From positions 1,740,001 to 1,772,000 of the forward strand of contig NC_017448.1 in NCBI RefSeq assembly GCF_000146505.1: a stretch of 32,000 nucleotides of DNA, read 5' to 3'. The notes beneath the pieces were generated by a model, which worked only from the letters and a program-made list of their open reading frames with translations, was not told the origin of the DNA and did no database searches. Made by a program: the position numbers and the translations under genes. Numbering within the stretch: the first letter of the stretch is position 1; each line of letters starts with the position of its first letter. The DNA is from Fibrobacter succinogenes subsp. succinogenes S85 (GTDB lineage Bacteria > Fibrobacterota > Fibrobacteria > Fibrobacterales > Fibrobacteraceae). Of the stretch, positions 1 to 25,787 are shown piece after piece.

Positions 1-1639
1 CATGACAATTCTTTTGAAGGTCGATACCTTCACCAGCCGCCTCTGTGGAAATCAAAAAGCGAACTTCACCATTGTTGAATTTTTCGCAAGCATCATTTCT
101 GGAAATAGAAATGTCACGAGAACATCCATCAGGATAAACTACATCTTTTAAGGATTCATCGCCATTGATTATGGTGACACTATTGTCCCCCCATACCTTC
201 ATCAATTCTGTCATCATCAGAGATTGCGTTCTTTTATATTCCGTAAATAAAAGAACCTGATCATTCGGATATTTCTCTTTGATAATTTCAACAATGCGGT
301 TGATCCTTGTTTCTGAGGTAACCTTTGTCGCTTTTTCTAATAATAAATTGATATGGTCTATTTCATTTTCCATCAGTTTCAAAGGTTCAGCAAGAGTCTG
401 AACACTGATTGTAGCCTCATCATCAAAGCCCTCCCGTTCATCTTCACCATAATTTGATAGGAAATTTTTATACGCAGTAGCTTTCCCTTCCAAAGCTTCC
501 TTACGATTTTTCAAAGCAGACGATATCGCAGCAATAGAGCTAGATGCAATTTTCTGCAAGCAGCTCAACAACAGACCTACCGCACTTCCAGCATTCCCTA
601 AGGTTTTAGCATACATATAACCAGCAGATATGAAAGCGGTCATCGCATCATAAAATTCTTTTTCTTCAGGAGAATAAGTAAAAGTATAAGGATGCTGAGT
701 CATCTTCGTGAAAAGAATTTTTCCCTTCATATCGACAACGTTCTTCTTGTTATTTCTAATAAAATAATCCTTAAGATGAGAATATTGCGATGCTTCGTCT
801 TTACCGGGTCCAAACACACCAGGAGCCACCAGTGACATTAATGACCAAAAGCCATAATTTTTTCCTCGATGAGGCGTACCTGTAAATAGTAAGCTCGAAA
901 CAATTTTCCCATTTTCCTGCAACATTTCAAACAGTTTGAACTGAAGAGTCTTGTTCCCCTGTTCTTCTGCATTCATATGATGAGCTTCATCGACAACAAC
1001 CAAATCCCATGCTGGAGCATCACATAAATGGTCAAACCTACCATGACTATCGGCCTGCATAGTCGATGCCGAAGCAACAACAAAAGTCGCACTTGTCCAA
1101 AAATCTGGATTCGTTTTTTCAACTTCCGTTGAATAGGCAAAGAATCCTAGATTGAACATACTTTTCATACGCTCTTGCCATTGTCCGACAAGTTTTGCAG
1201 GAGCAAGAATCAAAATGCGGCGTACCTTCCCAGTACTAAAGAGACTAGTCATAATAAGACCCGCTTCAATAGTCTTTCCCAAGCCAACATCATCCGCAAT
1301 AACATATCCTATAGGCCAACGGCTCAAAACCTGTTTACATACCCACAGTTGATGTGGCAAAAGTTCTATAGACGAACTAGAAAATAGTCCCCAACTGTTA
1401 TTTATAAATTTGACCACTTCACCTTGTATATGGACAAGAGCTTTTTTTTCTATTTCATTATCAACAGAGGCTGACAATTGATCAGAGAATGATGCGACCG
1501 GAGCCAATTCCGAAATGGAGATAAACTTGCCATTTTGACGATCCGAATCAAAACGGACTACAACCTGCGAATCAGTCAATACCGCTTCAATCTTTCCTCT
1601 ACCAAACTCTTTATGAATTACAATATCGCCCTGTTGCAT
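1..1639 (-). CDS. SNF2-family (SF2) helicase, N-terminal ~546 aa; the C-terminus runs off the left window edge
   Basis: This ORF is absent from the supplied track because no stop lies in the window; I translated it by hand from ATG 1639-1637. The sequence is MQQGDIVIHKEFGRGKIEAVLTDSQVVVRFDSD...ELLPHQLWVCKQVLSRWPIGYVIADDVGLGKTIEAG (motif I)...WDLVVVDEAHHMN (motif II, DEAH)...LFTGTPHRGK (motif III-like)...FLISTEAAGEGIDLQ (motif V) at the window edge. A strong SD (AAGGAG) sits 9 nt upstream. The ATG lies 2 nt after the stop of the upstream ORF. Confidence 0.9.
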   Translation of the reverse strand, partial: MQQGDIVIHKEFGRGKIEAVLTDSQVVVRFDSDRQNGKFISISELAPVASFSDQLSASVDNEIEKKALVHIQGEVVKFINNSWGLFSSSSIELLPHQLWVCKQVLSRWPIGYVIADDVGLGKTIEAGLIMTSLFSTGKVRRILILAPAKLVGQWQERMKSMFNLGFFAYSTEVEKTNPDFWTSATFVVASASTMQADSHGRFDHLCDAPAWDLVVVDEAHHMNAEEQGNKTLQFKLFEMLQENGKIVSSLLFTGTPHRGKNYGFWSLMSLVAPGVFGPGKDEASQYSHLKDYFIRNNKKNVVDMKGKILFTKMTQHPYTFTYSPEEKEFYDAMTAFISAGYMYAKTLGNAGSAVGLLLSCLQKIASSSIAAISSALKNRKEALEGKATAYKNFLSNYGEDEREGFDDEATISVQTLAEPLKLMENEIDHINLLLEKATKVTSETRINRIVEIIKEKYPNDQVLLFTEYKRTQSLMMTELMKVWGDNSVTIINGDESLKDVVYPDGCSRDISISRNDACEKFNNGEVRFLISTEAAGEGIDLQKNCH

Positions 1640-1641
1640 TA

Positions 1642-3426
1642 TTAAAACTCCTTTTCTATAAAAAGTATATCAAATGTATCATCCATAGTATTATGATCAG
1701 GCAACATTTCGCCTATTTTTCTGAATATCCGCACAGAACTTGCATTTTTGCAATCTAAGCCAAGCATTTTGCAGATTTTTTGTCGAGGCATAAAAGTTTG
1801 TAGTTTAATCTGTTCAAGTTTTTCTGGTTCCACGGCATCTTCGCCATCCACCCAGAAACCACTCCTGAGCAATTCTCGAAGTACGAAATGGATGCCCAAT
1901 TTGAACGATCTGTTCATAGTCGCATAATCAATATCCGTACCGGATAATTCTGAATCCATGGAAGGATAAAGAAGTACTGCAATATTTTCAAAATGCTCTC
2001 TTAACGGCAATTGCCGCACAACAGTATAGAAGTCAATAAATCTTTTTTGGAAACGACGCAATCTCAACATCATTTCAAACGGACGCAAATAGCATTCTTC
2101 GGAATGGGTTTCTTTATTGAATTGATCGCGGATATCTTGAAGATTTACTTTATTACAAAAATCATCAATAAAGCCATTTTCGTTAAGGAACTGTATTGCT
2201 TTTTTGAGAGAAACTTCCTGATGGTTATAGTACGGAAGACTTTGGCACATTCCATAAAGCATCAAAATGCACCATTCCTTGGTCATTTTTAAATCATCAC
2301 TAGATTCATCAAGAATCAGAGAATTACGGAATCTTAATTTTTCATGATCAAAGAAATCACTCGAATAAAGTTTTTCATAGTATAAGGCGACGAGAGATTC
2401 CTTTTCAGACAGCAATTGAAGCAATTCTGATTCAGTCAATTCTCTGCAATTTTTCAAATCATCTTCTGAATAATAAATATTCTCTTCCTGCGATGGTTCA
2501 GACAACACATTTATTGGAGTTGGAGTCCAATAATTTGAAGCAGTTCTGAGATTATTTAATAAATTATTTTTTTCAAAAAAAGCAATGCTGTTCGATGTAT
2601 AATATGACAAATCTATTTTTTCTTTTGCCAACCATACCGATGTACCATTTACTTCATATAGTTCTCGAATGGCAACCACTAAACCATCACTTGATTTTAT
2701 ATTAAAATCAATTTTATTAAAATCTTCCCAAAAGCTAGGCTTTACATTCGGTTTGAGGATAGACTCAATTAAAATAATATTGTCCAAAAGATCAACTGTC
2801 AAAGTCTTATTTTTTATTTCGGCAAAAAGATCAGCCAGTTCCATTTTATTTATTTCAATCAGAGAACCAAATTCTGAAAGATAGCTTTCCGAAGCCAAAT
2901 GAGTCATTACAAAAGCATCGCATTTATTGATTGCCAATATATTTTGAAAAGCATTCAACAATTTAGAGTCATCTCCATCCGTATAATTAGATGCGGCGAC
3001 AGAAAAAAGCCTAATGCGGTCTTCAAATTTAGTCACAGGCCCATAACCTGAAACTAATATTTTCTCCTGTCTGAATAATTTTTGCAAAATATTTTCAGCA
3101 AAAGGAGCAAAATACTTATCATTCGTATTTCGAGTTTTCAATAATAACGTCGCAATATCGTATGCATATTTTTGATAGGAATATGATGTAGATATCATTT
3201 CCTGCAAGATGACAAAAAGACAATTAGCGATTTTTTTCATCAACGTTTCATTTTTCTTATTTCCTGCAGCAAGGTTCTTTCGACCTGTATCTATTTCAAA
3301 ATCAGCATTAATAATAAAAGGTAACGTTTCAGACGCTTCAAGTGGCGTAAGATGCCATACGCGAGGATGCCAACTATCACATTCTGTCAAGTTAACTAAA
3401 ATTCCATCTAATTCTTTAAATAACAT
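1642..3426 (-). CDS. Uncharacterised protein, 594 aa from ATG 3426 (the track's 600-aa version starts at TTG 3444); its N-terminus looks like the missing C-terminal half of the upstream protein's second GHKL module
   Basis: A long open frame in an AT-rich region. The N-terminal motif TLPFIINADFEIDTGRKNL closely matches YAVIIHAPFAIDSGRKNI, which follows the first GHKL head in the 1819-aa protein. Neither candidate start has a convincing SD, whereas neighbouring genes carry AAGGAG-type SDs. It overlaps the upstream ORF by 19-37 nt. Confidence 0.7.
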   Translation of the reverse strand: MLFKELDGILVNLTECDSWHPRVWHLTPLEASETLPFIINADFEIDTGRKNLAAGNKKNETLMKKIANCLFVILQEMISTSYSYQKYAYDIATLLLKTRNTNDKYFAPFAENILQKLFRQEKILVSGYGPVTKFEDRIRLFSVAASNYTDGDDSKLLNAFQNILAINKCDAFVMTHLASESYLSEFGSLIEINKMELADLFAEIKNKTLTVDLLDNIILIESILKPNVKPSFWEDFNKIDFNIKSSDGLVVAIRELYEVNGTSVWLAKEKIDLSYYTSNSIAFFEKNNLLNNLRTASNYWTPTPINVLSEPSQEENIYYSEDDLKNCRELTESELLQLLSEKESLVALYYEKLYSSDFFDHEKLRFRNSLILDESSDDLKMTKEWCILMLYGMCQSLPYYNHQEVSLKKAIQFLNENGFIDDFCNKVNLQDIRDQFNKETHSEECYLRPFEMMLRLRRFQKRFIDFYTVVRQLPLREHFENIAVLLYPSMDSELSGTDIDYATMNRSFKLGIHFVLRELLRSGFWVDGEDAVEPEKLEQIKLQTFMPRQKICKMLGLDCKNASSVRIFRKIGEMLPDHNTMDDTFDILFIEKEF

Positions 3427-6400
3427 TTTAAAAGGACTTCGCAATCTCTATGATCCACTAACAAAAAGACTTCGCCATTCAACTTCACTTTTTTTATAGC
3501 AGTTTCACTTTTCGACAATTCACAAACATTTTGATATTCAGGCTCGATAACCTTATCCAATAAATATATTTTATTTATCTGTTTAGAAAATACCGTTAAA
3601 AATGCGGCACATTTTTCAAACTCAGCAAAGCAATCGTTTTCGACATCAATATCGTCTCTGCATTTCAATTCAATTTTGGTACAATCATCACATGTTTTAT
3701 CATATTCAATATTTTCGTCAGGATATATACCAGCAATAATTTTGAATTGCAAGTCACCGCTGCGAACAACCGGCTCATCGCATACAGTATAAACGCTTTT
3801 GAAGCCTAACCCAAATTTACCTGTTTGGCCATTTTCTTGGCTTTTTTCCGAAGACGCGATAGACAGCATGTTTTGCAAATCACGTTTAAAAGAATTCGCA
3901 ATATCATCATCCACTTCTGGAAAACTTTGATTAATCTTTCGACCGTAATGAATTATTTCAAGTCGTTTTGCAATAGAATCAAAATGCACCTCAAATTTTT
4001 TCTTATCGGCATATTTCAAGGCAATATCTTCAGGTGCCTTTAGAAAATCGTTAACGCAATCATCTGCATTCTGAAATAATTCAAAAAGGATACTTGAACT
4101 AAAATATTGATGTTCCTTTATCTTATGACAAACGCGATCAAAAATATATCGCTGTAAATCCGGTTCTCTTATTACTGTTTCTAACATTTCATTTCGCAAA
4201 TCCCATTCTTTTTGCGATTCACTTTCAGAATTCTCATCCTTATTGTCTAGACGATTTATTTCATTATTTAATCTTTTATACTCTTTGTGTTTTACATTCA
4301 AAAAATGTAATGTAGAGAAAATTTCTCGTCTAATGTGTTTTTGAGCAGCTTTTATCGTATATTGGCTAGTTTCGTCAATTAATTTAAAAAACTCATTTTT
4401 CAATAAAAACGCTTTTTTAACATCGATCTTATAAATATTCCACAAAAGAGTTTCTATTAAACATTTAATAGACTCATCAGTATTTATTCCAGACGATTTC
4501 AGCAACCTAACATTAAATGTCTTTGAGATCAAATCAAGATTAACATTTGGATCATACGTAACTTTCGGATTTATTGGAAATTCCTCGCATGTTCCAGCAA
4601 GACTCATCGCCTTATTTGTAGATTGAGAAATAACATTTGCAGTAACATTAATTTCATCAAAAGTCCTGAATCGATTACGCTTGCTTTCTTCCGTTGGGAA
4701 AAGTTTATTGACATGACTAGACGGAATAGTAAATTCATCTCGACAAAATTCATCCAATTTACCAAGAATGGAATCTTCTAAAGCACCAGCCATTCTGCGG
4801 AATTTTCCCTGCATCAAGTATAAAGCTAAAGAAACCAATTTAGGTTGCTTACAATTCTGTCTCCAAAAATCAACAACTTCTTTAATTTCAGCATCCGTTG
4901 CTTTCGGCAAACGCTGTACCATATCATTTTGGGGTATATAATTTGAAATCAAATCATAAGTTTCAGAAGAGCACAGGTTATCTCTTTTGTAAAGTTTCTG
5001 ACCTATACTATGGGAATCAGAACATTGAGGAACAGCAATCAGTTCCGTCGCTAATTTCCATTCCCTTTCAAGTTCATTTTCTGCATTTGGAAATCTACGA
5101 ATATCAGACAACTTAAAATTTGGGTTATCTTTAATCAATTTTAAAATATGATTAAATAATTTTAAAGCATCATCTTCGCAACGGGTATTTTCAGTCAAAG
5201 TATTTAATAATTCTATTCCGTTTTCATAATCAAATGCACCAGGAATTCTTAACTGACAATAGTTCTTCAACAATTCTTCTTTTGAAATTTTTAATTTCGA
5301 ATCACTTCCGATAACCGCATATATTTTTAGTATTTTATTTTTTTGTGTAAGATTATTTATTGCGAGATTAAATATACGCTGCTTTTCATCTTTATCTTCA
5401 ATAGGAAAGTAATAGTTTGAATATTTTTCTTGAATTCGAACGTTTATTTCATCAATTAAATCTAAATTTCTCCTTTTCAAGAAACCCGTTATGTATTTTT
5501 TCTTATCATCATTTATATCTACATCTTCCAATAAAATAAAATTCAACGATTCCTTTAGGATTGCAAAAGATTCTTGTGAGCACCTATCTGTGGTAAGGAT
5601 ATCTTTTATTGAACATAGATTTTCCGAATTCTTTAAAGGAATCCAACAGATACTATCTATTTGACTTAATTCTTTATCCGAAAAAGTGACATAACGCTGC
5701 ATTCTTTCAAGAATCCAATCACAACAGTTTCTAAGAATTCTAGGTTCAAATTTATATGAAATAAGAAATTCCCTTAACGCAGCTCCCTGTGTCAAAATTT
5801 CATAACGATTTCTGTCCGAATCGCTTATAAAAAACGAATCTTGTTTACTTCTCAGCAAATCATCCTTTTCACATGGTATAATTTTACCCTCCAATGAAGG
5901 TACATCTACCTCAAATTCAATATTATGCTTATTATACCACGTTGATCCTGGAACGAAAGACACAAATTCACCTTTTTCATTTTTATGTAAAGGTATTCTA
6001 TAATACAAGTTCCTTTTTGGTTCATTAATGACTTCAAATATTTGCTTGCGATTACTCTCATTTTGATAATACTCCGTTTTCATAAAATCAAGATTATTAC
6101 CTTGAGAAAAATGTACAAGCATTTCTTGACATTCATTATTATCTAGCCATGTTATATTTTTCAAAAGAGTATTGTGATTTTCAACAAATTTTTTTTGATT
6201 TTCGCTAAGAGTTAAAAGTTCTATTGCTTTATTATCCTTTTTTAAGCAATCTTCATATATTTTTTTCCAAACTTCACTACAATTAGGCTTTAGAATACAA
6301 ATTTTTGACTGCGTTTCCTTGAACCCCATCAATAAAAATGTATAGATTCCTGAATATTCTGGTCGAATATTTTCAAGCAAACTGTTTCTATCAAAAATAC

Positions 6401-8867
6401 TTTCAAGAAAATCTTTTCTTATATCTTCATCATTTGAAATTGCAAGATATTGCTGATATTTTTCTTTCAGATAATCTAAGGCACCAGCCTTATTTGCACT
6501 ACGTGCAAATTTATTCAGGAAAGCACTTCGATTGACATCAGCATTTTCCACCATGTATAAGTTTTCATTTTCAATCAACTTTACAAGCTTGCAAATAATA
6601 TGCGACGAATCACTAAAATCAAATTCCCTAAAAAGATTTATTTTTAAAACTGCATTATAGTCTAAAAAGTCTATTGTATTGTTAAGGATATTTTTTCCCC
6701 TATCATACTGAATTTTCTGTACTTTAAAGACCTTCAAATTTGAGCGATAGTCTCTTTCTATTTTTGACAAAACAGACTTTATACTATCACCGGCAATAGC
6801 TTGTATTACACTTAACTGAGCTTTGCCTGAAAGTTTATTTTCCTCTGCACAAATACATAAAAAATAGAGAAATTCATCAAAATCATATTCAATATTACAA
6901 TTGTTATGAACTAGTGTTTGCGAAGGCAACAATATAAAGGGATTATCTTTTTCCCATAAATATGTCCACTCGTCATCTAAAATGTCAATATTCTGAATTT
7001 CGTAAAACTCTATTACACTACACAAATCCTTTATTTTATTTATAGATGTCATTACCTTGGCAACACCTAAATTCGCCAAAGCCCTTAGTATAGCTGTTCT
7101 TATGCAATTTTTTAAATTCAAATCGCTATGCAACCTAGTTTTATTTATTCCATTTATTAAAATTAATTTATGTAGAAATTCAATAATCAATTCATCTTCA
7201 AAAAGCTCGCTAGGAATAGTCGCAAGTAATTGTTCAAAAGCATTTAAATCAAATTTTATTGTTGGCGGCAAAGTAGAAACAGTATCCGTCAAAAGAAGAA
7301 CATCCATTGACCCAGCCATTTTCGTTAGCCAGTTTAACAATTTAGAATCATCTGTTTCAGGAATGTGTATATATCTACCGCCTCGCTCAACCTGAAGTAA
7401 AATCCATTCCTTTACGCCACCAGCATTTATTCTTCTAACAAACACATTTTTGGCATTAACGTATTCTAGGCGACGTTTCTCGCCATCTTCGCCTTGTTGA
7501 AGCAAATCATACAGTTTTTTACCAACATCCTTAACATCCTGTTCTAACAACACCCCATCTTTTAAAGCCTTATCTAATAACGACGGTAAACTAGGAGCCA
7601 AAATAGACTGAAAAAGTATTCTATTCCACCATCGATGAAGCGGTTTTTCCTCATCCAAAGAATATTCTACATTTTCAAAATCGTTCATTTCTACTCTATG
7701 ATGGCAGATTGTATCAAATTTGTAAATATTTTTTCTTCCAGAATCAATTGCAAATGGAGCATGTATAATTACAGCATAATTAAAATCGCAATCAATCCTT
7801 TTTATTTCCCCAATTTTTTCTTGTTTCGGCAAAGGAAGATACGAGGCAAAAGAAAGCCTCAAATTTATTTTTTCATCTTGTACAATTCTTGGAATTCGTA
7901 ACAACTGTAACACTGTAGTCCCACGAAGGCGCTCTTCAGCAAGCTCATTTATTGATTTCCCAAAATCAACGATTTTTTTCTTAGTTTTCAAAGAACCTTC
8001 GTAATCACATTTAGCCAGTCTACGTGCCAATTCGTTAACAACTCTTTTTTGTTCTTCATTTGCAAAAATACTTTCGCCAACAACATCTCTTAGTGATGAA
8101 AAAGGAACTACAATTTCGTCTTGAAAATTCAGTGAAAGTCTACAGTTATTTTCATTTACATTCAGCAGAATGTTACAATCTCCTAAATCATAGCGAAATT
8201 CTTTTAATTTTGTTCCTTTTGACGATTTCGAAAGAATTGCAAAAGTAAGAATAATATTTTGTATTAACTCAGAGCATCCTTTTTCATTTCTGTTAAATGG
8301 ATGTTTAGGATCGACCGGTTCAGAGCCAATTTTATTTTTTCCATCAACAGGAATAAAAAAAGATAAACCATCTTGTTCTTTTTCAAATTGTTCAACAAGA
8401 GCCTTTTCATCGTCTTCTGTAAGATCAGCAAATTCACCAGAATTACCATCGTCATCTTTACCTTTTAAGGGACTCAATCCATTAATAAGCTTATCTTTAT
8501 GACCATAATAGATAAATGCATCACATAAATGATAAATGCTTTTTAAGCCAAAACCATACCTACCAATTGTGGTAGCATCATTTTTTTTGTTATCGCCTCC
8601 AAACATGGCGATGTTTTTTGCATCATCTTCATCAAACTTTCCATTATTATAAACAACAATCCCAGCTCTTTTTAATAGCGGGCAATGAGCATTAGGAACA
8701 GCTGTAAACGAACGAATAACAATTTTTGTCGCATTGGCATCACTGGCATTTTGAATTAGTTCCTTTAATATGGTAAAACCAGAGCCATATTTATAGTTAT
8801 CAAGATTTAATTGAATGGTGGAAAGAATATTAGTTTCATAATTCGAAAAAGAAGATCTTTTTAGCAT
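3408..8867 (-). CDS. Giant (1819 aa) protein with two sacsin/MORC-like GHKL (HATPase_c-type) ATPase heads
   Basis: The N-terminal head has ILKELIQNASDANATKIVI (Bergerat N-box type E-x-x-QNA-D-A) followed by IGRYGFGLKSIYHLCD. The second head, near the C-terminus, has ILFELFQNADDCVND followed by GKFGLGFKSVYTVCD. Both pairs fit the ELIQNADDA / GxFGxGFxSVYHxxD signature of sacsin-repeat/NOV-type GHKL domains. About 1200 aa with no recognisable domain lie between the two heads. The start is an ATG at 8867. Confidence 0.9.
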   Translation of the reverse strand: MLKRSSFSNYETNILSTIQLNLDNYKYGSGFTILKELIQNASDANATKIVIRSFTAVPNAHCPLLKRAGIVVYNNGKFDEDDAKNIAMFGGDNKKNDATTIGRYGFGLKSIYHLCDAFIYYGHKDKLINGLSPLKGKDDDGNSGEFADLTEDDEKALVEQFEKEQDGLSFFIPVDGKNKIGSEPVDPKHPFNRNEKGCSELIQNIILTFAILSKSSKGTKLKEFRYDLGDCNILLNVNENNCRLSLNFQDEIVVPFSSLRDVVGESIFANEEQKRVVNELARRLAKCDYEGSLKTKKKIVDFGKSINELAEERLRGTTVLQLLRIPRIVQDEKINLRLSFASYLPLPKQEKIGEIKRIDCDFNYAVIIHAPFAIDSGRKNIYKFDTICHHRVEMNDFENVEYSLDEEKPLHRWWNRILFQSILAPSLPSLLDKALKDGVLLEQDVKDVGKKLYDLLQQGEDGEKRRLEYVNAKNVFVRRINAGGVKEWILLQVERGGRYIHIPETDDSKLLNWLTKMAGSMDVLLLTDTVSTLPPTIKFDLNAFEQLLATIPSELFEDELIIEFLHKLILINGINKTRLHSDLNLKNCIRTAILRALANLGVAKVMTSINKIKDLCSVIEFYEIQNIDILDDEWTYLWEKDNPFILLPSQTLVHNNCNIEYDFDEFLYFLCICAEENKLSGKAQLSVIQAIAGDSIKSVLSKIERDYRSNLKVFKVQKIQYDRGKNILNNTIDFLDYNAVLKINLFREFDFSDSSHIICKLVKLIENENLYMVENADVNRSAFLNKFARSANKAGALDYLKEKYQQYLAISNDEDIRKDFLESIFDRNSLLENIRPEYSGIYTFLLMGFKETQSKICILKPNCSEVWKKIYEDCLKKDNKAIELLTLSENQKKFVENHNTLLKNITWLDNNECQEMLVHFSQGNNLDFMKTEYYQNESNRKQIFEVINEPKRNLYYRIPLHKNEKGEFVSFVPGSTWYNKHNIEFEVDVPSLEGKIIPCEKDDLLRSKQDSFFISDSDRNRYEILTQGAALREFLISYKFEPRILRNCCDWILERMQRYVTFSDKELSQIDSICWIPLKNSENLCSIKDILTTDRCSQESFAILKESLNFILLEDVDINDDKKKYITGFLKRRNLDLIDEINVRIQEKYSNYYFPIEDKDEKQRIFNLAINNLTQKNKILKIYAVIGSDSKLKISKEELLKNYCQLRIPGAFDYENGIELLNTLTENTRCEDDALKLFNHILKLIKDNPNFKLSDIRRFPNAENELEREWKLATELIAVPQCSDSHSIGQKLYKRDNLCSSETYDLISNYIPQNDMVQRLPKATDAEIKEVVDFWRQNCKQPKLVSLALYLMQGKFRRMAGALEDSILGKLDEFCRDEFTIPSSHVNKLFPTEESKRNRFRTFDEINVTANVISQSTNKAMSLAGTCEEFPINPKVTYDPNVNLDLISKTFNVRLLKSSGINTDESIKCLIETLLWNIYKIDVKKAFLLKNEFFKLIDETSQYTIKAAQKHIRREIFSTLHFLNVKHKEYKRLNNEINRLDNKDENSESESQKEWDLRNEMLETVIREPDLQRYIFDRVCHKIKEHQYFSSSILFELFQNADDCVNDFLKAPEDIALKYADKKKFEVHFDSIAKRLEIIHYGRKINQSFPEVDDDIANSFKRDLQNMLSIASSEKSQENGQTGKFGLGFKSVYTVCDEPVVRSGDLQFKIIAGIYPDENIEYDKTCDDCTKIELKCRDDIDVENDCFAEFEKCAAFLTVFSKQINKIYLLDKVIEPEYQNVCELSKSETAIKKVKLNGEVFLLVDHRDCEVLLKCYLKN
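3414..3432 (-). other. Two candidate -1 ribosomal frameshift heptamers inside the ORF overlap
   Basis: In the frame of the 1819-aa ORF the mRNA reads GTC CTT TTA AAA TGT TAT TTA AAG AAT TAG. T_TTA_AAA occupies 3432-3426 and T_TTA_AAG occupies 3420-3414; both fit X_XXY_YYZ. A -1 slip at either site enters the frame of the 600-aa ORF (..FKMLFKELD.. or ..FKELD..). The stop follows 1 codon after the second heptamer. Confidence 0.35.
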
Positions 8868-8902
8868 GTTTATTCCATAATTTCGATGAATCTTATCTTT
8901 TC

Positions 8903-8908
8903 AATATA
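8903..8908 (-). promoter_or_regulatory. Candidate -10 box (TATATT) for the giant GHKL operon
   Basis: In gene orientation the sequence reads TTTTTATATTGAAAAG, about 35 nt upstream of ATG 8867. The same TATATT-type box recurs upstream of pilT and of the island genes. No -35 element could be assigned. Confidence 0.3.
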
Positions 8909-8941
8909 AAAAATGATTGCTCCCGCTTTTTTTTGTACATT

Positions 8942-8975
8942 AAAAAGCCCTCATTCAAAACGAGGGCTTTTTTTC
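8942..8975 (-). terminator. Rho-independent (bidirectional-looking) terminator downstream of pilC
   Basis: The stem GCCCTC (8947-8952) pairs with GAGGGC (8962-8967) around a 9-nt loop. An A-run lies on one side and a T-run on the other. It sits about 40 nt after the pilC stop and marks the right border of the AT-rich insertion. Confidence 0.6.
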
Positions 8976-9012
8976 ACTTATTTTGTAAAAACATGCAGTA
9001 TTACGCCGTTTA

Positions 9013-10215
9013 TTAGCCCTTGATTGCGTCGCCCATGCTAAACATCGGCATATACATTGCAATCAGGAGGCCACCGACGGCACCGCCCAAGAACACGATG
9101 ATGAGCGGTTCAATCATACTCACGACGGCATCAACTGCGGCGTCCACTTCTTCATCATAGAAGTCCGCGAGCTTCAAAAGCATACCACCCAAGTTACCAG
9201 TCTTTTCACCGACGCCCGTCATCTGGATCACCATGGGCGGGAAAATGCCCACTTCTTCCATCGGCTCGGCAATGGACTTACCACCAGCAATACCAATCGA
9301 TATCTTATAAATTGCCTTTTCAACAACTTTGTTACCTGCGGTTGTCGCAACAACCTTCAAGGCATCCATCACAGACACACCAGCATTCAAAAGCGTTCCG
9401 AGCGTTCGAGCAAAGCCAGCCGTCGCAGACTTAATCTGCAAATCGCCTAGCTTTGGGACTTTTAGCGTAAACTTGTCCATTGCAAATTGCGCTTGCGGTA
9501 TTCGCATTATCATCTTGTAGGCAAAAATGATAATGATAACGCCAATAAACATAAACGCACCGTTGTTGCGTATAAAGTCAGAAATATTCATCACGACTTG
9601 CGTCGGGGCCGGGAGTTCTGCATCAAGAGCAGCAAACTGTTCAGCGAACGTCGGCACCACGAACGTCATAAGTGCAATCACAACGACAATACCCACGATA
9701 ATAACCATGATCGGGTACGTCAAAGCTTTTTTCACCTTGCGTTTGAGGCGCTGGTTGTTTTCAAGAGTTTCTGCCAGACGAGCCAGAATGCCTTCAAGAA
9801 TACCACCCGCTTCACCAGCAGCCACCATGTTGCAATACAGGGAGTCAAAAACCTTCGGGTGCTGCGCCAAGGCATCAGCCAAGGAAGAACCGCCGTTAAT
9901 TGACTGCGTGAGCTTATGCACAACGTTCTTGAGTTCCGGGTTTTCGCACTGCGCTTCAAGAATGTTCAAGCACTGCAACATTGGAAGACCCGCCGAGCAC
10001 ATGGACGAGAACATACGCGTAAAACGGGTGATGTCTTCGGTCTTGATGCCGGAACCAATCTTAATCTTGATTTCGGTCGGTTTTTTCTTGAGGCTCGTAA
10101 TAATCAAGCGACGGCGGAGCAAAAGGGCTTCGGCTTCGGCCCTGTCCTTAGCTTCAAGCGTACCTTCAAAGCTATTACCCTGCGAGTTTTGGGCCTTGTA
10201 CAAAAATTCAGCCAT
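9013..10215 (-). CDS. pilC: Type IV pilus assembly platform protein PilC (GspF/T2SS-F family)
   Basis: The 400-aa protein has the typical duplicated T2SS-F architecture and three hydrophobic segments. It lies immediately downstream of pilT, with a 3-nt gap. Confidence 0.88.
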   Translation of the reverse strand: MAEFLYKAQNSQGNSFEGTLEAKDRAEAEALLLRRRLIITSLKKKPTEIKIKIGSGIKTEDITRFTRMFSSMCSAGLPMLQCLNILEAQCENPELKNVVHKLTQSINGGSSLADALAQHPKVFDSLYCNMVAAGEAGGILEGILARLAETLENNQRLKRKVKKALTYPIMVIIVGIVVVIALMTFVVPTFAEQFAALDAELPAPTQVVMNISDFIRNNGAFMFIGVIIIIFAYKMIMRIPQAQFAMDKFTLKVPKLGDLQIKSATAGFARTLGTLLNAGVSVMDALKVVATTAGNKVVEKAIYKISIGIAGGKSIAEPMEEVGIFPPMVIQMTGVGEKTGNLGGMLLKLADFYDEEVDAAVDAVVSMIEPLIIVFLGGAVGGLLIAMYMPMFSMGDAIKG

Positions 10216-10218
10216 TGA

Positions 10219-11286
10219 TTACACCCCTTCCTTTACAAACAACTGTTCCAACTGATCCGGGCTCGACGAACGAGCAAGAGCGTCAAAACGATCGACCTTG
10301 TGGTTCTTGACAAGTTCACACAAGCACATGTTCATCGTGTTCATGCCGAACTTCTGACCAATTTCAATCATGGATTCAATCTGGTGAACCTTGTCATCAC
10401 GGATCAAAGCGCGGATACCCGGCGTCACGTTCATGACTTCGTACGCCATCACGCGTCCACCGCCAATCTTTGGCAAAAGGGTCTGACAGATAACTCCCTG
10501 GAGCACAAACGAGAGCTGCGTACGCACGGTCTGCTGTTCACCCTTCGGGAAGGCGTCGACCACACGGTTGATGGTCTGCACGCAAGAGTTTGTATGAAGC
10601 GTTGCAAAAGTCAAGTGACCCGTTTCGGCAATCGTAAGCGCCGAGCGGATCGTTTCCAAGTCACGCATTTCGCCGATGAGCACCACGTCCGGGTCCTGAC
10701 GAAGAGCCATCTTGAGGGCCTGCGCAAAGCTATGCGTATCGCTACCGACTTCACGCTGGTTGATCATGCAACCCTGATGCTTATGCAAAAATTCGATCGG
10801 GTCTTCAACCGTCAGAATGTGGTCGTGACGTTCCTTGTTAATCTTGTCGATCATGGCAGCCAAGGTCGTGGACTTACCAGAACCGGTAGCACCCGTCACA
10901 AGCACAAGGCCAGAAGGACGTGTCGTAAATTCGGCCATAATCTTCGGGAGGCCGAGGTCCTTAAACGTCTTGATATCAAGCGGAATAATACGGAGGGCAA
11001 GCGCCACACAGCCACGCTGCAAGTAGGCGTTCGCACGGAATCGCGCAAGATTTGCAATACCGAATGAAAAGTCGCATTCCTTTTGCTGTTCAAAAGTCTT
11101 TTTCTGGGCTTCATTCATCAAGCTGTAAGTCATACGCATGGTTTCGTCGGGCTTAAGCTTGTTTTCCCCGATGGGGGTAAGCTTGCCGGAAAGACGAATA
11201 AGAGGGGGTGCGCCGGCCGTAATATGCAAGTCGGACGCCCCACGTTTGACCATTTCTGCTAAAAGATCTTGAATGTTATATGCCAT
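10219..11286 (-). CDS. pilT: Twitching-motility retraction ATPase PilT
   Basis: The 355-aa protein has Walker A GATGSGKSTT, the Asp box/Walker B VVLIGEMRD, and PilT-type length and N-terminus (..DLHITAGAPP..). Confidence 0.9.
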   Translation of the reverse strand: MAYNIQDLLAEMVKRGASDLHITAGAPPLIRLSGKLTPIGENKLKPDETMRMTYSLMNEAQKKTFEQQKECDFSFGIANLARFRANAYLQRGCVALALRIIPLDIKTFKDLGLPKIMAEFTTRPSGLVLVTGATGSGKSTTLAAMIDKINKERHDHILTVEDPIEFLHKHQGCMINQREVGSDTHSFAQALKMALRQDPDVVLIGEMRDLETIRSALTIAETGHLTFATLHTNSCVQTINRVVDAFPKGEQQTVRTQLSFVLQGVICQTLLPKIGGGRVMAYEVMNVTPGIRALIRDDKVHQIESMIEIGQKFGMNTMNMCLCELVKNHKVDRFDALARSSSPDQLEQLFVKEGV

Positions 11287-11337
11287 GCACTAGAATATAA
11301 TTTAAAAAGCTCAAAAATTTCATAAATTCTTTATGCA

Positions 11338-11856
11338 ATGCGTTCATCCACTTATAAAATTCTCGCATGGGTAGGGGCAATTATTTTCCTCGGCTTCGCG
11401 TTTTATGCGTTCGAAGCCAAGTCCCGACAGCGCCTGAACTACCCAGAAACGGTCGTGAACTTCACGGCTGACGATGTGATGGGCGGCAAATCGGACTACG
11501 CAAGCGAGAAGGGGACTGCAACGCTTATTGTTTTAACCGCCTCCTGGTGTCCATCATGCCGGGCGGAACTTCCGATACTCAAGCAGTTCAACGAGGAATT
11601 TGGACCGAAGGGCCTCAAGATTCTGATGATTGACGAGGACGACTCCAAGAAGGTCGCCCGCAAGTACAAGAGAAGCATGGATATCCCGTGGACGATGCTC
11701 CACTGGAACTACGACGCGCTCAAGGCGCTAGGAAGCCCGGGTGTGATCCCCGTGAGCTATGTGGTCGACAAGGACGACAAGGTCCAGCACGTTGATGTCG
11801 GAGTGCTCAACGAACTGAGAGTCCGACACGAGCTAAAGCGACTGCTGGGACAGTAA
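11338..11856 (+). CDS. Membrane-anchored TlpA/ResA-like thiol-disulfide oxidoreductase (thioredoxin fold)
   Basis: There is an N-terminal hydrophobic anchor (ILAWVGAIIFLGFAFYAF) and a WCPSC redox motif. The 172-aa length is typical of the redoxin family. Confidence 0.8.
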   Translation: MRSSTYKILAWVGAIIFLGFAFYAFEAKSRQRLNYPETVVNFTADDVMGGKSDYASEKGTATLIVLTASWCPSCRAELPILKQFNEEFGPKGLKILMIDEDDSKKVARKYKRSMDIPWTMLHWNYDALKALGSPGVIPVSYVVDKDDKVQHVDVGVLNELRVRHELKRLLGQ

Positions 11857-11881
11857 TTTAGACGAAAGATCGCTTCGCTGA

Positions 11882-11963
11882 TAGACGAAAGACGAGAGAA
11901 AAATAATGGCACTTCGTGCGTCTTTATAGGGCGGCTTAGCCGCGATTTCCTCTCTTTCGTCTA
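11882..11963. repeat. Imperfect inverted repeat / long hairpin between convergent genes (possible bidirectional terminator)
   Basis: The left arm TAGACGAAAGACGAGAGAAA (11882-11901) faces the right arm TTTCCTCTCTTTCGTCTA (11946-11963); the first 11 nt of the arms are perfectly complementary. An extra direct copy of AGACGAAAG lies at about 11867. An inner hairpin GCGGC-TTA-GCCGC is present. The right arm abuts the epmA stop. Confidence 0.45.
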
Positions 11964-11964
11964 C

Positions 11965-12936
11965 TCACGCTATCGGGCTTGGGAAGAGGATCACGTCAGC
12001 GATTTCTTCTTTACCGAGGGCGAGCATGAACAGGCGGTCGAGCCCGAGAGCCACACCAGAGCAAGCTGGCATACCCGATTCAAGAGCAGCAAGGAACCGT
12101 TCGTCAATAGGCGGTAAGGGCTTGTTCATCCCCTTACGAATTTCCAAATCAGCATAGAAACGGCGACGTTGTTCCACCGGGTCCGTAAGTTCCGTGTAAC
12201 CATTGCAAAGTTCCACCTGGTTCACGAAAAGCTCAAAGCGGCGAGCCCACGTGTAACCTTCATTATCCACGTACGTCTGTGCGAGAGCCGCCTGCGATGG
12301 CGGGTAATCCAAGATGAACTCGGGACCATTACTTGCGAGAGCAGGTTCCACGAGGAAGACCATGAGATAGTCCCACCAGTCTTCGCGCGTGAGCGTCTCG
12401 CTCTTTTCGGGTACGGGAATCTCGCGAGCGCGGCAAGCATCCGCAAAGTCCGTAAGCTTTTCACAAAACGGATTCACGCCAGCGTAATTCTTGAAAGCAT
12501 CAATCCAGCGGGTGCGGCGGGCATTTAGTTTGGTCCCAATAATTTCACTCACAAGGTCTTCGACTTCGTCCATGAGTTTGTCCTGAATCATACCCACGCG
12601 GTACCATTCCACCATCGAGAACTCGTTGTTGTGGTGGCCGCCAAATTCATCCTTGCGGAACGACTTTGTAATCTGGAAAATGTCACCGAACTTTGCAGCG
12701 AGCAAGCGCTTCATGTGAAATTCCGGGCTCGTCATCATGAACCGCTTCGGGTCTTCAATCTCAAAGTAATCGAGCTGCGGATCCGTTCCACCGTATGCAG
12801 AAAGCACAGGCGTCTCGACTTCGAGCGCATTACGACGAACAAAGAAATCACGGACGCGGGCCATCAGCGCCTGGCGCTTGACCCAAGTTTCACGCGTGCA
12901 AGTGGGCGCAAATGCGCCCGAGTTCAAATTTTCCAT
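11965..12936 (-). CDS. epmA: EF-P--(R)-beta-lysine ligase EpmA (GenX/PoxA; truncated class II LysRS paralog)
   Basis: The 323-aa protein is a class II aaRS catalytic core without an anticodon-binding domain. Diagnostic stretches include FRKDEFGGHHNNEFSMVEWY, RFELFVNQVELCNGYTELTDP and CSGVALGLDRL. Confidence 0.85.
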   Translation of the reverse strand: MENLNSGAFAPTCTRETWVKRQALMARVRDFFVRRNALEVETPVLSAYGGTDPQLDYFEIEDPKRFMMTSPEFHMKRLLAAKFGDIFQITKSFRKDEFGGHHNNEFSMVEWYRVGMIQDKLMDEVEDLVSEIIGTKLNARRTRWIDAFKNYAGVNPFCEKLTDFADACRAREIPVPEKSETLTREDWWDYLMVFLVEPALASNGPEFILDYPPSQAALAQTYVDNEGYTWARRFELFVNQVELCNGYTELTDPVEQRRRFYADLEIRKGMNKPLPPIDERFLAALESGMPACSGVALGLDRLFMLALGKEEIADVILFPSPIA

Positions 12937-14312
12937 TACTCAGCTCCGGCTACACAACGGACCGCAAGATAGAAACTCGGATCCACGGAAATGGAGCCGA
13001 CATCCTTATCGGAGCTGAACATTGTGCGAGCCTTGCCACGAGAATCTTCTTCGGAATCGGCAGTCCAGAAGTAGGCGCCCTCGCCCATCGTCGTGCAGAC
13101 GCCAGTCTTGTTGGCGTAGCCACCGAACATGGCCGTGAATGCATAATCGTCACTGCCGTTGCTCTTGAGCTTGAGTGCCGCAGAGCGTGCGCCACCGGCG
13201 TATTCTTCAAGCTTTTTCCAGTCCGCATCCGTGGCGAGATGGTAGCCTGCCGGGCAAGCCTTCTTGGCGGCTTCTTGCGTGTAAAGGCGGCCAAACGTTT
13301 TGCAGTTCGCATCATCGCGGTCGTAGCAAATCGAGCCATCAGGATCATTGTAGTTCAAGTTTTCGACGAACCAATCTACGCCACCGATTTCCTTGACCTT
13401 GTAAACTTGTTTGTCACGCTTGTCCACAAAGTTCTTGAACACCGGGCAGCGAGCGCTGAAGCCAGCCTCCGAGAGAATCGGATCGACCTTGCCCTTCCAA
13501 GCCGTGCAGAAGCGGAACAGCTGACCGCCCGGGAGCGAAGCGCCCTTATGCTTGGCGGCCCAAGACTTCACGTAATGGAGGCCCGTCACGGCGGTATCGG
13601 GAATTGAGAGCACCTTGGCATACTTGCCAGCGAGTGCGGCATACGTCCCGGCAACAGACATCGGAGCTTTCCAGAAGCCTTCGGAAAGACCTTCGCGCAA
13701 GCTTGCAAAAACCGGAGACGGTTTGTAGACCTTAATCGTCTTGTCCACCATCTGTTCAGGTTTCGTCTTGCAATTCACATCATGGTCAATCGCCATCAAT
13801 GAATTCGCATCCACCTTGCACTGGGCAATGCACTTTGTTCGTGCAGCACCCTTCTTGGGGCAAGGTTTCCAGACCGTCGTATCAACACTCACGAGCGACT
13901 GTTTTCCAAAAGCCTTCGTCTTCGTTGCAGCCTTAGCCACCTCGTCTAGCGTCTTGAGAGCCTTTGCGCTCCCCTTCTCGCCATCGGCGAGCAAATACTT
14001 GATGACACCCGAGCAGGCATTCGCGGCATTCGCCATCGAACACACCTTCGGCCCAAAGCCATACGCAAACTGGGACGGGCAAGCGGCAAACGCTTCATCC
14101 GGCATCTGCTTGAAATGCTTGCCATAAATGTTTGTCGCATTCTTCGCAGACATCTTACCGCAATAGATTTCTTCAAGTTCGCCGGAATTGACAATCTTTT
14201 TCACCTTTTTCCAGTTGTTGGAATCAACGGCCTTGCGGAGCGCTTCTTGGGCAAAACTACCCTGTGCCAAAATTGCAGAACAAACCAAACTTGCTATAAA
14301 AAGATTCTTCAT
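12936..14312 (-). CDS. Secreted protein with a C-terminal 'Fibrobacter succinogenes major paralogous domain' (FISUMP-type)
   Basis: A Sec signal peptide is present (MKNLFIASLVCSAILAQGSFAQ). The C-terminal region WFVENLNY...CYD...FGRLYTQEAA..ACPAGYHLATDADWKKLE...YFWTA...AVRCV matches the known W-x-ENLN / GxLYTW / CPxGWHLPxxxEW pattern. Its stop overlaps the epmA start (TAATG). Confidence 0.8.
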   Translation of the reverse strand: MKNLFIASLVCSAILAQGSFAQEALRKAVDSNNWKKVKKIVNSGELEEIYCGKMSAKNATNIYGKHFKQMPDEAFAACPSQFAYGFGPKVCSMANAANACSGVIKYLLADGEKGSAKALKTLDEVAKAATKTKAFGKQSLVSVDTTVWKPCPKKGAARTKCIAQCKVDANSLMAIDHDVNCKTKPEQMVDKTIKVYKPSPVFASLREGLSEGFWKAPMSVAGTYAALAGKYAKVLSIPDTAVTGLHYVKSWAAKHKGASLPGGQLFRFCTAWKGKVDPILSEAGFSARCPVFKNFVDKRDKQVYKVKEIGGVDWFVENLNYNDPDGSICYDRDDANCKTFGRLYTQEAAKKACPAGYHLATDADWKKLEEYAGGARSAALKLKSNGSDDYAFTAMFGGYANKTGVCTTMGEGAYFWTADSEEDSRGKARTMFSSDKDVGSISVDPSFYLAVRCVAGAE

Positions 14313-22259: not shown

Positions 22260-22286
22260 GGTTTTAACCTCAATTTTGCACCATGC

Positions 22287-22321
22287 AATATAAAAGAAAC
22301 GCACGACAATTAATGTCGTGC
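22287..22321 (-). promoter_or_regulatory. Island element copy 2
   Basis: AATATA lies at 22287-22292. GCACGAC-AATTAAT-GTCGTGC lies at 22301-22321 (perfect 7-bp arms). The element is 27 nt upstream of ATG 22259 and 29 nt downstream of the stop at 22350. Confidence 0.6.
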
Positions 22322-22349
22322 GAGATTTTTTAACAAGCCACACAAAATC

Positions 22350-23567
22350 CTACATGGCTTCATTTGCTTTATTCTCTACTTTCGCCTCATTTACAATTTT
22401 TTCAGTTTTTTTGTACACATCATACAAACCATCCACAATTTGTTTATCATCATTTTCATCTATAGATTGTACAATAATACTCCATTTTTCATTCTGTGAC
22501 AAATCATGAGTCGTTTTTATAACATCTATTTTACCATCAATCAACTTTTTATACAAAGCTTCCCTGGCTCTATCACCATCACCTTGCCATACACTAAGGC
22601 TAATATCAAATTTTTTCTTATTAAAACCAGCCTCTATTCCTAATGCGTATTTAGGATTATTTTCTTCAAAACATCCTTTTAGATAAAAATAACGCCTCTT
22701 ATCCCGAGGATTTATCCAAATCTCTTTCTTCATAAATTCGCAAAAAGTTGCATTTTCCTTTAAGGCAAGAAGATTCTTTATTTTATCAATATGTTGATTA
22801 TTTTCAACTCTTTGTTTTTCCAAAAAAAGATTTCTGCGTTCAATTAGTTGTTCTATAATTCTATTATTTTCATCATTAAGAAAGAAATCTTTTTCATCTT
22901 TAGAAAAATCCGACATATAGCCTCCCTTTCGGTCTAAAAATAAGATAAAATCTGTTAAAACAGGAAGATATTTGGAATTACATTGTGTTAAATAATTACC
23001 TAAATTTTGTTTTAACTTTTCTAAAAACTCTCTATAATAAATCGTTTTAAAATTAGGATTTACATTCTCATATTCAGCCTTTTGACATAAAGCAAAAAGA
23101 ATACACACCGTGTGTAAATCATAACATTCACTTTCATTTTTAACATAATCATAATAATCATTAAAATCATTGTACGCAGGAGCATCAATTTTATTTTCTA
23201 TACACACTTTTAAGCAATCTGTTGTCAACAGTAAATCAATGCGATTCCCTTTTTCAGTATATATTTCTGTTTCAGCACAAACGCTTCGAGTATGCATGAT
23301 ATTTTTCTTATCAAAATTCTCCACTTCTACTGGATACTTTTCTCGATAAGCATCAAAAAGCGAATTAAAAAAAAGAGTTCTAAACCCATGTGGATTTCTT
23401 GAATCAAAGAAAAAAGCGAATATTCTCGAGCATATTTCTTCTAGCCGATTCCACGGATACTCGCACAATTCCAAATAAGTCGGCTCATACATCGGCTTGG
23501 GAAGAAAGTTGTTAAACTTGTTAAGAAGTTCTTTAAACTTTTCAAGCTGATTTTCATCTTTTTCCAT
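22350..23567 (-). CDS. PD-(D/E)XK nuclease family protein (PDDEXK_4-like), 405 aa
   Basis: The core GNRIDLLLTTDCLKVCIENKIDA fits the D...E-x-K pattern. The N-terminal EEICSRIFAFFFDSRNPHGF resembles the E..HS.fLa.LL.P...Hg stretch of this family. It is a paralog of the 24473-25612 protein. The gene is AT-rich. Confidence 0.7.
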   Translation of the reverse strand: MEKDENQLEKFKELLNKFNNFLPKPMYEPTYLELCEYPWNRLEEICSRIFAFFFDSRNPHGFRTLFFNSLFDAYREKYPVEVENFDKKNIMHTRSVCAETEIYTEKGNRIDLLLTTDCLKVCIENKIDAPAYNDFNDYYDYVKNESECYDLHTVCILFALCQKAEYENVNPNFKTIYYREFLEKLKQNLGNYLTQCNSKYLPVLTDFILFLDRKGGYMSDFSKDEKDFFLNDENNRIIEQLIERRNLFLEKQRVENNQHIDKIKNLLALKENATFCEFMKKEIWINPRDKRRYFYLKGCFEENNPKYALGIEAGFNKKKFDISLSVWQGDGDRAREALYKKLIDGKIDVIKTTHDLSQNEKWSIIVQSIDENDDKQIVDGLYDVYKKTEKIVNEAKVENKANEAM

Positions 23568-23612
23568 AAGTAAATCCTCTTAACATTAAATATGATTATA
23601 TCAGACTAGAAG

Positions 23613-23654: not shown

Positions 23655-23673
23655 TCCTTAACTTTTTTGACAT

Positions 23674-25785: not shown

Positions 25786-25787
25786 AT

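Follow-up and report, generated by a model that had tools for sequence, protein, structure and literature searches.

We describe here a pair of adjacent bacterial genes, one encoding a giant protein with two sacsin-type GHKL ATPase heads and the other an SNF2 helicase, a copy of which lies at the left end of a 32,000-nucleotide stretch of the Fibrobacter succinogenes S85 genome (contig NC_017448.1, positions 1,740,001-1,772,000). This whole stretch is called the window below, and coordinates given without a locus name are positions in it. We are highly confident that the two genes form a functional unit, conserved and mobile, and we lean, a little beyond an even judgement, to seeing in it an unnamed, horizontally acquired two-gene defence module of the restriction-like, anti-mobile-element class, made of a GHKL ATPase and a superfamily 2 (SF2) helicase. 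The S85 copy of the giant is probably crippled by a deletion of one nucleotide (nt) within its second head, as alignment with intact homologs indicates.

The gene pair in bacterial genomes

A profile-guided scan of GTDB species genomes, with one genome per species, gave at least 310 relatives of the giant. We analysed 79 loci with our own open reading frame (ORF) caller and phmmer, 73 of which could be evaluated for a partner, and an SNF2 protein of about 880-930 amino acids (aa) is encoded directly downstream of the giant in 55 of these 73, in three cases one small ORF away. The partners match the helicase of locus L001 with E-values from 1e-77 to 1e-283, all except one below 1e-165. The most common spacing between the two genes is an overlap of 4 nt, and the SNF2 gene is translationally coupled to the gene of the giant. 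All-against-all clustering of 961 neighbourhood proteins left the giant and the helicase as the sole widely conserved families. This conserved adjacency, together with the domain scores given below, bears out what a sequence-only reading of the window had pointed out, that an SNF2 helicase is paired with a giant bearing two sacsin-type GHKL heads.

The hosts include Treponema and other spirochaetes, Fibrobacter, beta-, gamma- and deltaproteobacteria, Verrucomicrobia, Planctomycetes, Acidobacteria, Chloroflexi, Gemmatimonadota, Poribacteria, Hydrogenedentes, Bacillota, cyanobacteria and Deinococcus. Cultured bacteria with intact pairs include Pseudomonas sp. GM18 (L044), Hydrogenophaga sp. RWCD_12 (L019), Massilia sp. 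DD77 (L018), Marinobacterium lutimaris DSM 22012 (L035), Caballeronia megalochromosomata JC2949 (L077) and Deinococcus wulumuqiensis, on pDrdI (L094). The family is found on seven plasmids as well, among them plasmid C of Trichormus variabilis ATCC 29413 and Deinococcus megaplasmids, and on both plasmids inspected the giant is labelled "hypothetical protein"; no match was found among 50,697 phage records. Such a distribution is sporadic and horizontally transferred, without any fixed housekeeping context, and is not the core-genome pattern against which the sequence-only reading had set its proposal.

Three variants of the locus can be distinguished. The majority consist of the giant followed by the SNF2 gene. 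The second variant is represented by two Cloacimonadota giants with a C-terminally fused superfamily 1 (SF1) helicase (Walker A at residues 2293 and 2307) and no SNF2 partner, and this fusion ties the giant independently to a nucleic-acid motor. The two fused proteins (L012 4954-13302, 2783 aa; L031 3328-11793, 2822 aa) carry Pfam AAA_11/AAA_12 and are Upf1/Dna2-like. The third variant comprises seven cyanobacterial loci (L022, L037, L040, L049, L061, L074 and L080), where the giant is stably split into proteins of about 855 and 1950 aa, and where a 222-aa Macro-domain protein (for example L061 16475-17143), resembling the macro domain of DarG (PADLOC E 1.8e-54), stands in the place of the SNF2. 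A canonical DrmD-like SNF2 and a PglX-like methylase are frequently encoded near these cyanobacterial loci on the other strand.

The locus in Fibrobacter succinogenes S85

Three minus-strand ORFs follow each other closely at the left end of the window (Table 1). The first encodes 1819 aa, the second 600 aa if translation begins at a TTG and 594 aa if it begins at the ATG at 3426, and the third starts at 1639 and exits the left edge after 546 aa. The first two share 37 nt (3408-3444), and 2 nt (1640-1641) separate the second from the SNF2 ORF. The content of guanine plus cytosine (G+C) is 0.29-0.39 across 1-9000 against 0.49-0.55 across 9001-14000; a T2SSF/PilC-type gene lies at 9013-10215 and a T2SSE/PilT-type gene at 10219-11286, and a gene close by encodes the Fibrobacter-specific Fib_succ_major domain. 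The ORF coordinates, overlap, gap, G+C contrast (about 0.31 against 0.50) and motifs read earlier from the letters are all in agreement with the ORF list, the G+C profile and the translations, which contain ELIQNASDA, GRYGFGLKSIYHLCD, ELFQNADDC and GKFGLGFKSVYTVCD in the giant and DDVGLGKT, DEAHH and STEAAGEGIDLQ in the helicase.

The 1819-aa product is 100% identical to P0001, an F. succinogenes protein named by NCBI 'sacsin N-terminal ATP-binding-like domain-containing protein'. Profile hidden Markov model searches likewise support the proposed domains, all of them above curated cut-offs: Pfam SACS (PF25794) with 108.9 bits against 32.8, in two stretches of the giant, the sacsin N-terminal ATP-binding-like domain of NCBIfam (NF047352) with 119.7 against 50, and, for the SNF2 ORF, Pfam SNF2-rel_dom with 59.8 against 24.9 and Helicase_C with 33.6 against 23.5.

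The trio of genes proposed by the sequence-only reading did not survive comparison with homologs, and its 1819-aa product falls short of the full protein, which has about 2400 aa. The search with the 1819-aa ORF, made in a collection of 5.8 billion proteins, returned 25 bacterial homologs of the giant, each a single polypeptide of 2217-2656 aa save one of 1631 aa. When P0003 (52% identical) is aligned by tblastn, it follows one frame as far as 3453 and another from 3438, with 14 nt left for five residues, and across the deletion site the homologs read ...IDC[RK]STNNPFKMLF..., while the second frame of the window reads ...RSPFKMLF.... The PADLOC models of TmtA place the middle-domain part of the second ATPase module at the opening of the 600-aa ORF. 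Since the homologs are single proteins and the frame switches at one place, the two ORFs are halves of one gene, and the block reads as two genes, giant and SNF2, not three. The identical split is present in an independent Logan assembly and is therefore not an error of a single assembly.

A programmed -1 frameshift at a T TTA AAA heptamer (3432-3426, within the overlap) was considered and rejected, because the residues SPFK, encoded upstream of the heptamer, are already in the new frame and match the NPFK of the homologs, so that the shift must have occurred further upstream. The simplest reading of the lesion would be a recent inactivating mutation. It is, in our judgement, an evenly balanced matter whether the locus in S85, irrespective of what the family does elsewhere, is by now a decaying pseudogene remnant with no current function. 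The deletion parts the ATP-binding domain from the middle domain of the second module, and neither a homopolymer nor a slippery sequence, conserved or otherwise, is present at the site to account for it. Against decay, however, this is the sole lesion: both halves are otherwise open, over 1819 and 600 codons of DNA with a G+C of about 31%, and the SNF2 gene is intact with its 876 codons, which means that the lesion is recent or the split is tolerated. Translation could restart at the ATG at 3426, and the stably split cyanobacterial giants provide a precedent. In a Bacillota metagenome-assembled genome (L013 550-8346) an in-frame stop divides the giant into ORFs of 1843 and 750 aa, 12 nt apart, at the same spot in head 2, where the middle domain follows the ATP-binding domain, either by coincidence or as a tolerated split point.

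The island and its insertion slot

Two Logan contigs, 99.9% identical to the window, supply the rest of the SNF2 gene, and 20 nt after its stop codon comes the 3' end of a convergent radical-SAM gene with a G+C of 0.54. This slot was compared in Fibrobacter relatives, on seven contigs with a PilC of 85-89% identity, where the genes run in the order aminotransferase, Fib_succ_major protein, tRNA synthetase, redoxin, PilT, PilC, about 250 nt, the radical-SAM gene on the strand opposite to PilC, and cellulase/glycosyl hydrolase; the slot between pilC and the radical-SAM gene is empty in six of the seven. Since these two genes are neighbours in the relatives, and the SNF2 gene stops 20 nt from the same radical-SAM gene, the island ends there and holds, in about 10 kb, only the genes of the giant and the SNF2. 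An operon continuing to the left with a hidden effector, as had been supposed, is thus not what we find: the SNF2 gene ends the operon next to a conserved housekeeping gene. Horizontal acquisition, on the other hand, is well supported by the presence/absence comparison and by the G+C of 0.29-0.40 inside the island against 0.50-0.54 in the flanks.

On the right, similarity to the flanks of the relatives ends after GCGTAATACT, at 8997. The sequence-only reading had let the block begin at a pilC terminator, and a hairpin with a T-run, AAAAAAAGCCCTC-GTTTTGAAT-GAGGGCTTTTT (about 8973-8940, minus strand), can indeed be read 3' of the pilC stop; it is derived from the island and now terminates pilC. 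The automatic terminator scan missed this hairpin because its loop has 9 nt. No tRNA or known RNA was found at the insertion site, and no direct repeats were seen at the island junctions.

In one relative (L089, 10453-11412) a PDDEXK_2 (Rpn/transposase-like) gene fills the same slot, which suggests that it is a recurrent insertion site. In five others (L087, L088, L090, L092 and L093, at 10204-10310) the spacer is filled by a conserved, GC-rich element some 100 nt in length, for which a long hairpin is predicted; the window strain lacks it and has the island here, no Rfam family matches it, and it varies little in sequence.

Anatomy of the giant protein

Head 1 contains the Bergerat residues E36, N40, D43 and G102xxGxG and a middle-domain motif with H369, F372, D375 and R378, all of them invariant in a 24-sequence alignment (A1); E36, N40, D43, the three glycines, F372 and R378 are invariant also in a 19-sequence alignment (A6). 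Head 2 has E1596, N1600, D1602/3 and G1683xxGxG, and G1862 and R1863 in its middle domain. The Bergerat motifs and the middle-domain arginine of both heads are invariant in two independent alignments, and a downstream DxGR motif is kept in each head (R378, R1863). Judged by these residues, both heads look active and their GHKL modules catalytically intact. The family profile matches the crystal structure of sacsin SRR1 (5v44) with an E-value of 2.8e-27, and MORC2 with 7e-4 only. The AlphaFold model of the 600-aa ORF, with a predicted local distance difference test (pLDDT) score of 81.5, folds over its first 250-280 residues like the middle domain of Hsp90 (Foldseek probability 0.96, E 0.035).

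Structure prediction for the central region of some 1200 aa, which had been left unassigned by the sequence-only reading, gave for residues 420-1570 a chain of alpha/beta and helical domains with a pLDDT of 84; the stretch between the two head modules measures about 1130 aa and is without an assignable enzymatic domain. The model had no match in the PDB at E <= 0.001, and the region as a single query found only eight matches among 1.84 billion representative proteins, which points to fast divergence and brought no new domain information. The helical C-terminal domain gave no match in a structure search. Its conserved motif consists of G2325, R2331-E-L and R2335. A sacsin-like C-terminal HEPN domain was rejected, since the R-x6-H string is not conserved (the histidine is present in 23 of 67 sequences) and the invariant residues are the G, R-E-L and R. 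A duplication of the whole unit was rejected too, as profile-profile comparison repeats only the GHKL N-domain (probability 97%), the match to the short DxGR region being weak (probability about 4%).

Across 47 loci the median identity to the window protein is 45.5% for the SNF2 partner, 36-39% for the N-domains of the heads, 16-17% for their middle domains, 15% for the central region and 19% for the C-terminal domain.

The SNF2 partner

The SNF2 ORF carries GLGKT (Walker A) and DEAHH, with both the N-lobe and the Helicase_C lobe above the Pfam cut-offs. The nearest solved structure to this motor is RapA (E 6.5e-47), and the NCBIfam RapA model gives a score of 124 against a cut-off of 576. Among the PADLOC models, that of DrmD (PDLC02634) matches the window protein with E 1.8e-132, and BrxHI/HII, HmaA and DpdE match more weakly. 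No nuclease-typical motif is invariant in the family within residues 600-876.

The family profile of the SNF2 N-terminus matches the C-terminal Tudor domain of UvrD (7egt, E 4.8e-4), and also 6yi2, 7egs and 4c2t. Sub-threshold matches to CarD_TRCF_RID occur in 8 of 18 members and to PcrA_UvrD_tudor in 6 of 18. The domain has a polymerase-binding role in Mfd and CarD. The same role is documented for UvrD/PcrA, where this Tudor domain mediates binding to RNA polymerase (PMC7585439, PMC8318588), and by analogy the Tudor-like N-terminus may dock the partner helicase on RNA polymerase, a reasonable if unproven lead.

Table 1. Features of the S85 locus (window positions)
Feature	Position	Strand	Remarks
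SNF2 helicase gene, first 546 of 876 codons	1..1639	-	other 992 nt left of the window; P0033, 876 aa, 100% identity
N-terminal Tudor-like domain of SNF2, aa 1 to ~45	1505..1639	-	invariant H9, G13, G15, F30
Giant gene, 3' part	1642..3444	-	600-aa ORF; remainder of head 2 and helical C-terminal domain
Helical C-terminal domain, ~320 aa (aa 283-600 of the 600-aa ORF)	1645-2598	-	AlphaFold model
Head 2, reconstructed aa 1561-2090	2599..4187	-	GHKL N-domain and Hsp90-like middle domain; holds the frameshift
Giant gene, 5' part	3408..8867	-	1819-aa ORF; residues 1 to ~1808 of the reconstructed 2408-aa protein
1-nt deletion splitting the giant gene	3439..3452	-	tblastn frame switch against P0003
Central region, aa 431-1560	4188..7577	-	fast-evolving, mixed alpha/beta; without assignable enzymatic domain
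Head 1, aa 1-430	7578..8867	-	sacsin/Hsp90-type GHKL N-domain and middle-domain motif; Pfam SACS, HATPase_c_3
Sigma-70-like promoter match, weak	8877..8904	-	TTGAAA-16-AATTAT, 5' of the giant gene; 9/12 positions match
Island right end	8940..8996	-	similarity break at 8997; includes hairpin and T-run, ~8973-8940

The scan behind the promoter entry of Table 1 found one site against a chance expectation of 1.4, which is no evidence by itself.

Neighbouring defence genes

The genes beside the pair differ between loci, and most of them belong to restriction or abortive infection. Locus L001 has McrBC and RloB/AAA_15 beside the pair, L002 has MmeI-type methylase-nucleases and two GmrSD proteins, and L003 a type III restriction-modification system, DrmA-DrmB-DrmC, AIPR and McrBC. 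Type I HsdR, BrxL, PglX/Eco57I-like methylases and WYL regulators occur at other loci, and in Deinococcus a NucS-domain nuclease stands with a type I methylase. These neighbourhoods fit defence islands, and the defence-like context suggested by the sequence-only reading is, on inspection of the neighbouring genes, found again in other genomes.

Relation to known systems

Several parts of the pair are known already. GHKL ATPases were linked to SF2 helicases in restriction-modification-like operons by Iyer, Abhiman and Aravind in 2008 (PMC2292703), sacsin-type heads occur in TmtA, and RapA-like helicases occur in DISARM, ARMADA and BREX. The giant/SNF2 module itself has no name and fits none of the named systems. 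We found no published description of the pair, although most subscription journals were outside the search and a prior description is possible; neither the ARMADA papers nor those on modularity-based discovery speak of a GHKL or sacsin partner. The earlier statement that the locus matches no named system also stands, since PADLOC gives only the TmtA matches to the heads and the DrmD-type match to the helicase, and assignment of the S85 locus to Tiamat, DISARM or ARMADA was rejected by the partial TmtA match, the lack of DrmABC and the lack of a methylase and a YprA gene.

Tiamat TmtA begins with the same sacsin-type GHKL module, and its models match the giant at each head and at the middle-domain part of head 2 (PADLOC best E 2.1e-25). 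However, the matches cover only about 28-134 and 295-481 of models that are 1300-1780 positions long, and TmtA is a single gene with one head and no helicase partner, whereas the giant has two heads and a conserved SNF2. TmtA has been grouped in a preprint with systems containing a PD-(D/E)XK nuclease (10.1101/2024.10.26.620412); no nuclease was detected in the giant by Foldseek, and no nuclease or methylase by Pfam across 19 diverse giants. The absence of methyltransferase and nuclease from the block, remarked upon by the sequence-only reading, thus holds in domain and structure searches.

The MORC and paraMORC loci (PMC2292703) resemble the pair in placing a GHKL ATPase with a middle (S5-like) domain beside a SWI2/SNF2 or other SF2 helicase in mobile restriction-like loci. 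These operons usually contain also nucleases (HNH, restriction-endonuclease fold, Vsr) and methylases, whereas the pair has no such conserved partner, and their ATPases are single-headed proteins of a few hundred residues. The heads of the giant are, by the E-values given above, much nearer to sacsin than to MORC2. Eukaryotic sacsin is, like the giant, a very large protein with repeated Hsp90-like ATPase modules, and its structure 5v44 is the best match of the head N-domain. Sacsin has, however, three such modules together with ubiquitin-like, DnaJ and HEPN domains, whereas the bacterial giant has two modules and no DnaJ, and no similarity between them was detected outside the heads. RapA shares with the partner helicase N-terminal Tudor-type folds, which in RapA, as in Mfd, CarD and UvrD, make contact with RNA polymerase; it is a conserved housekeeping gene product of about 968 aa, whereas the helicase of the pair is encoded by an accessory gene locked to the giant.

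On the helicase side the pair resembles DrmD of class 1 DISARM, ArmA of ARMADA and BrxHII of BREX, the partner being a RapA-like SWI2/SNF2 ATPase, and the question arises whether the pair is autonomous. It could be an accessory or alternative arm of DISARM/ARMADA-type systems, where the giant replaces the large methyltransferase and depends on a helicase-nuclease of the DrmAB(C)/YprA type. The PADLOC DrmD model is matched end to end by a homolog (L019, residues 10-879 on profile positions 7-895 of 900, E 2e-247). In L003 and L014 the giant lies between DrmC and the SNF2, right after DrmA-DrmB-DrmC; DrmA or DrmB adjoin the pair in L016, L018 and L022, DrmB/DrmC are near it on Trichormus plasmid C, and several loci hold a second, canonical DrmD-like SNF2 with PglX-like methylases. 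In ARMADA (10.1101/2025.09.15.676423) the companions of the RapA-like helicase are a PglX-like methyltransferase and a helicase of the YprA family. We nevertheless consider this reading improbable. Of about 79 loci, only 4 independent ones have DrmA-like genes with the pair, and where the helicase of DISARM or ARMADA accompanies a large methyltransferase and a YprA/DrmAB helicase, the companion here is the double-GHKL giant alone. The S85 island consists of the pair alone, without DrmA, DrmB or DrmC, without a methylase or YprA/DUF1998 gene. No methyltransferase domain, DrmMI-like or other, was found in the island or the conserved pair, and the 18 larger window ORFs scanned from 9 to 31 kb gave no MZB/DUF1998 or PLD gene. 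The DISARM_DrmD equivalog models of NCBIfam stay far below their cut-offs, at 185 against 610 and 137 against 950, values which refer to the partial protein of 546 aa.

Proposed function and its alternatives

We propose that the pair is an autonomous module, and judging from its genomic context it is reasonably probable that it defends bacteria against phages or plasmids. The candidate defence system of the sequence-only reading is retained as regards its context and its novelty, and given up as regards the trio and the hidden effector; the defence function itself is what the context points to.

A possible mechanism can be outlined on this basis. The SNF2 protein would be an ATP-driven double-stranded-DNA translocase, possibly docked to RNA polymerase through its Tudor domain. 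The giant would act as an ATP-gated clamp or sensor, its heads dimerising upon ATP binding in the manner of Hsp90, MutL, topoisomerase and MORC ATPases, and the two heads of a single chain may even be each other's partners. On dimerisation the long variable middle would be closed around the DNA of the invader or a nucleoprotein target, which the middle would recognise or enclose. Since no nuclease or methylase is present, the outcome that we propose would be a block or remodelling of transcription or replication of the invader, or a hand-over of the target to unlinked nucleases, for example those of an adjacent DrmABC. This scheme of a clamp with a polymerase-docked motor is tentative and rather unlikely in its details. 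Its furthest extension would be a widespread nuclease- and methylase-free immunity of two genes, where the clamp and a polymerase-riding motor would perform transcription-coupled surveillance and silence or evict the invader, and where the giant would be a bacterial antecedent of the sacsin architecture; we regard it as unlikely.

A number of points weigh against the defence reading and its mechanism. The family is known from genomic and sequence evidence alone. The context of defence islands was judged by inspection and not by an enrichment statistic, and a bulk PADLOC scan of 101 neighbour proteins was so dominated by redundant SNF2 models that it yielded no useful measure of enrichment. No effector (nuclease, methylase or toxin) was detected in the pair by Pfam, PADLOC, PDB sequence profile or Foldseek searches. 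The matches of the SNF2 family to Tudor domains fall under the curated Pfam cut-offs, and head-to-head pairing within one chain is pure inference. The frameshifted copy in S85 may do nothing. Eukaryotic sacsin is described as a protein chaperone, and by analogy the giant might act on proteins, not on DNA.

A rival possibility is that the pair is not an immune system but a maintenance or quality-control machine of mobile DNA, made of an Hsp90/sacsin-like chaperone for RNA polymerase or nucleoprotein complexes and a RapA-like polymerase-recycling motor, or that it serves selfish addiction or partition. Among solved structures its nearest relatives are ATPases of the chaperone type (sacsin, Hsp90) and RapA, a polymerase-recycling factor; the Tudor-like domain of the SNF2 is of the polymerase-binding kind, no nuclease is found in the pair, and the pair is met on plasmids and megaplasmids. 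We consider such a role improbable, as the distribution is sporadic and horizontal with no fixed housekeeping context, restriction and abortive-infection genes dominate the neighbourhood, and the non-catalytic parts diverge extremely fast, which is better explained by an arms race than by a conserved client.

Should the pair prove to be a defence system, as we are inclined to think, its 310 or more genome matches would make it a large and phylogenetically broad addition to the immune repertoire of bacteria, and one of unusual parts: two chaperone-type ATPase heads per chain, no recognisable nuclease, and a motor with the hallmarks of association with RNA polymerase. The family could also bear on the mechanism of the sacsin-type ATPase module, a question that extends to human sacsin, and on the question why RapA-like helicases recur in DISARM, ARMADA and BREX. 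Current annotation tools would call the helicase "DrmD" and the giant "hypothetical protein" or sacsin-like, by which the conserved module is hidden. The family deserves experimental attention, for which the frameshifted S85 copy is unsuited and intact homologs are preferable.

Other observations in the window

A second AT-rich block (22000-27000, G+C 0.29-0.35) contains two ORFs of the PDDEXK_4 nuclease family (22350-23567 and 24473-25645) and two ORFs without a Pfam match (23674-24351 and 25788-26837). It is flanked by a gene for a 795-aa protein with two AAA+ domains (19956-22343), by an AAA_14/DUF4143 ATPase gene (27345-28631), by a Fic-domain ORF (28762-29292) and by a WYL/WCX regulator gene (29916-31013), and the region 19956-31013 may be another defence or mobile-element island. 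The AAA_14 family is represented twice in the window, the second gene lying at 16636-18372, and one of the two carries DUF4143.

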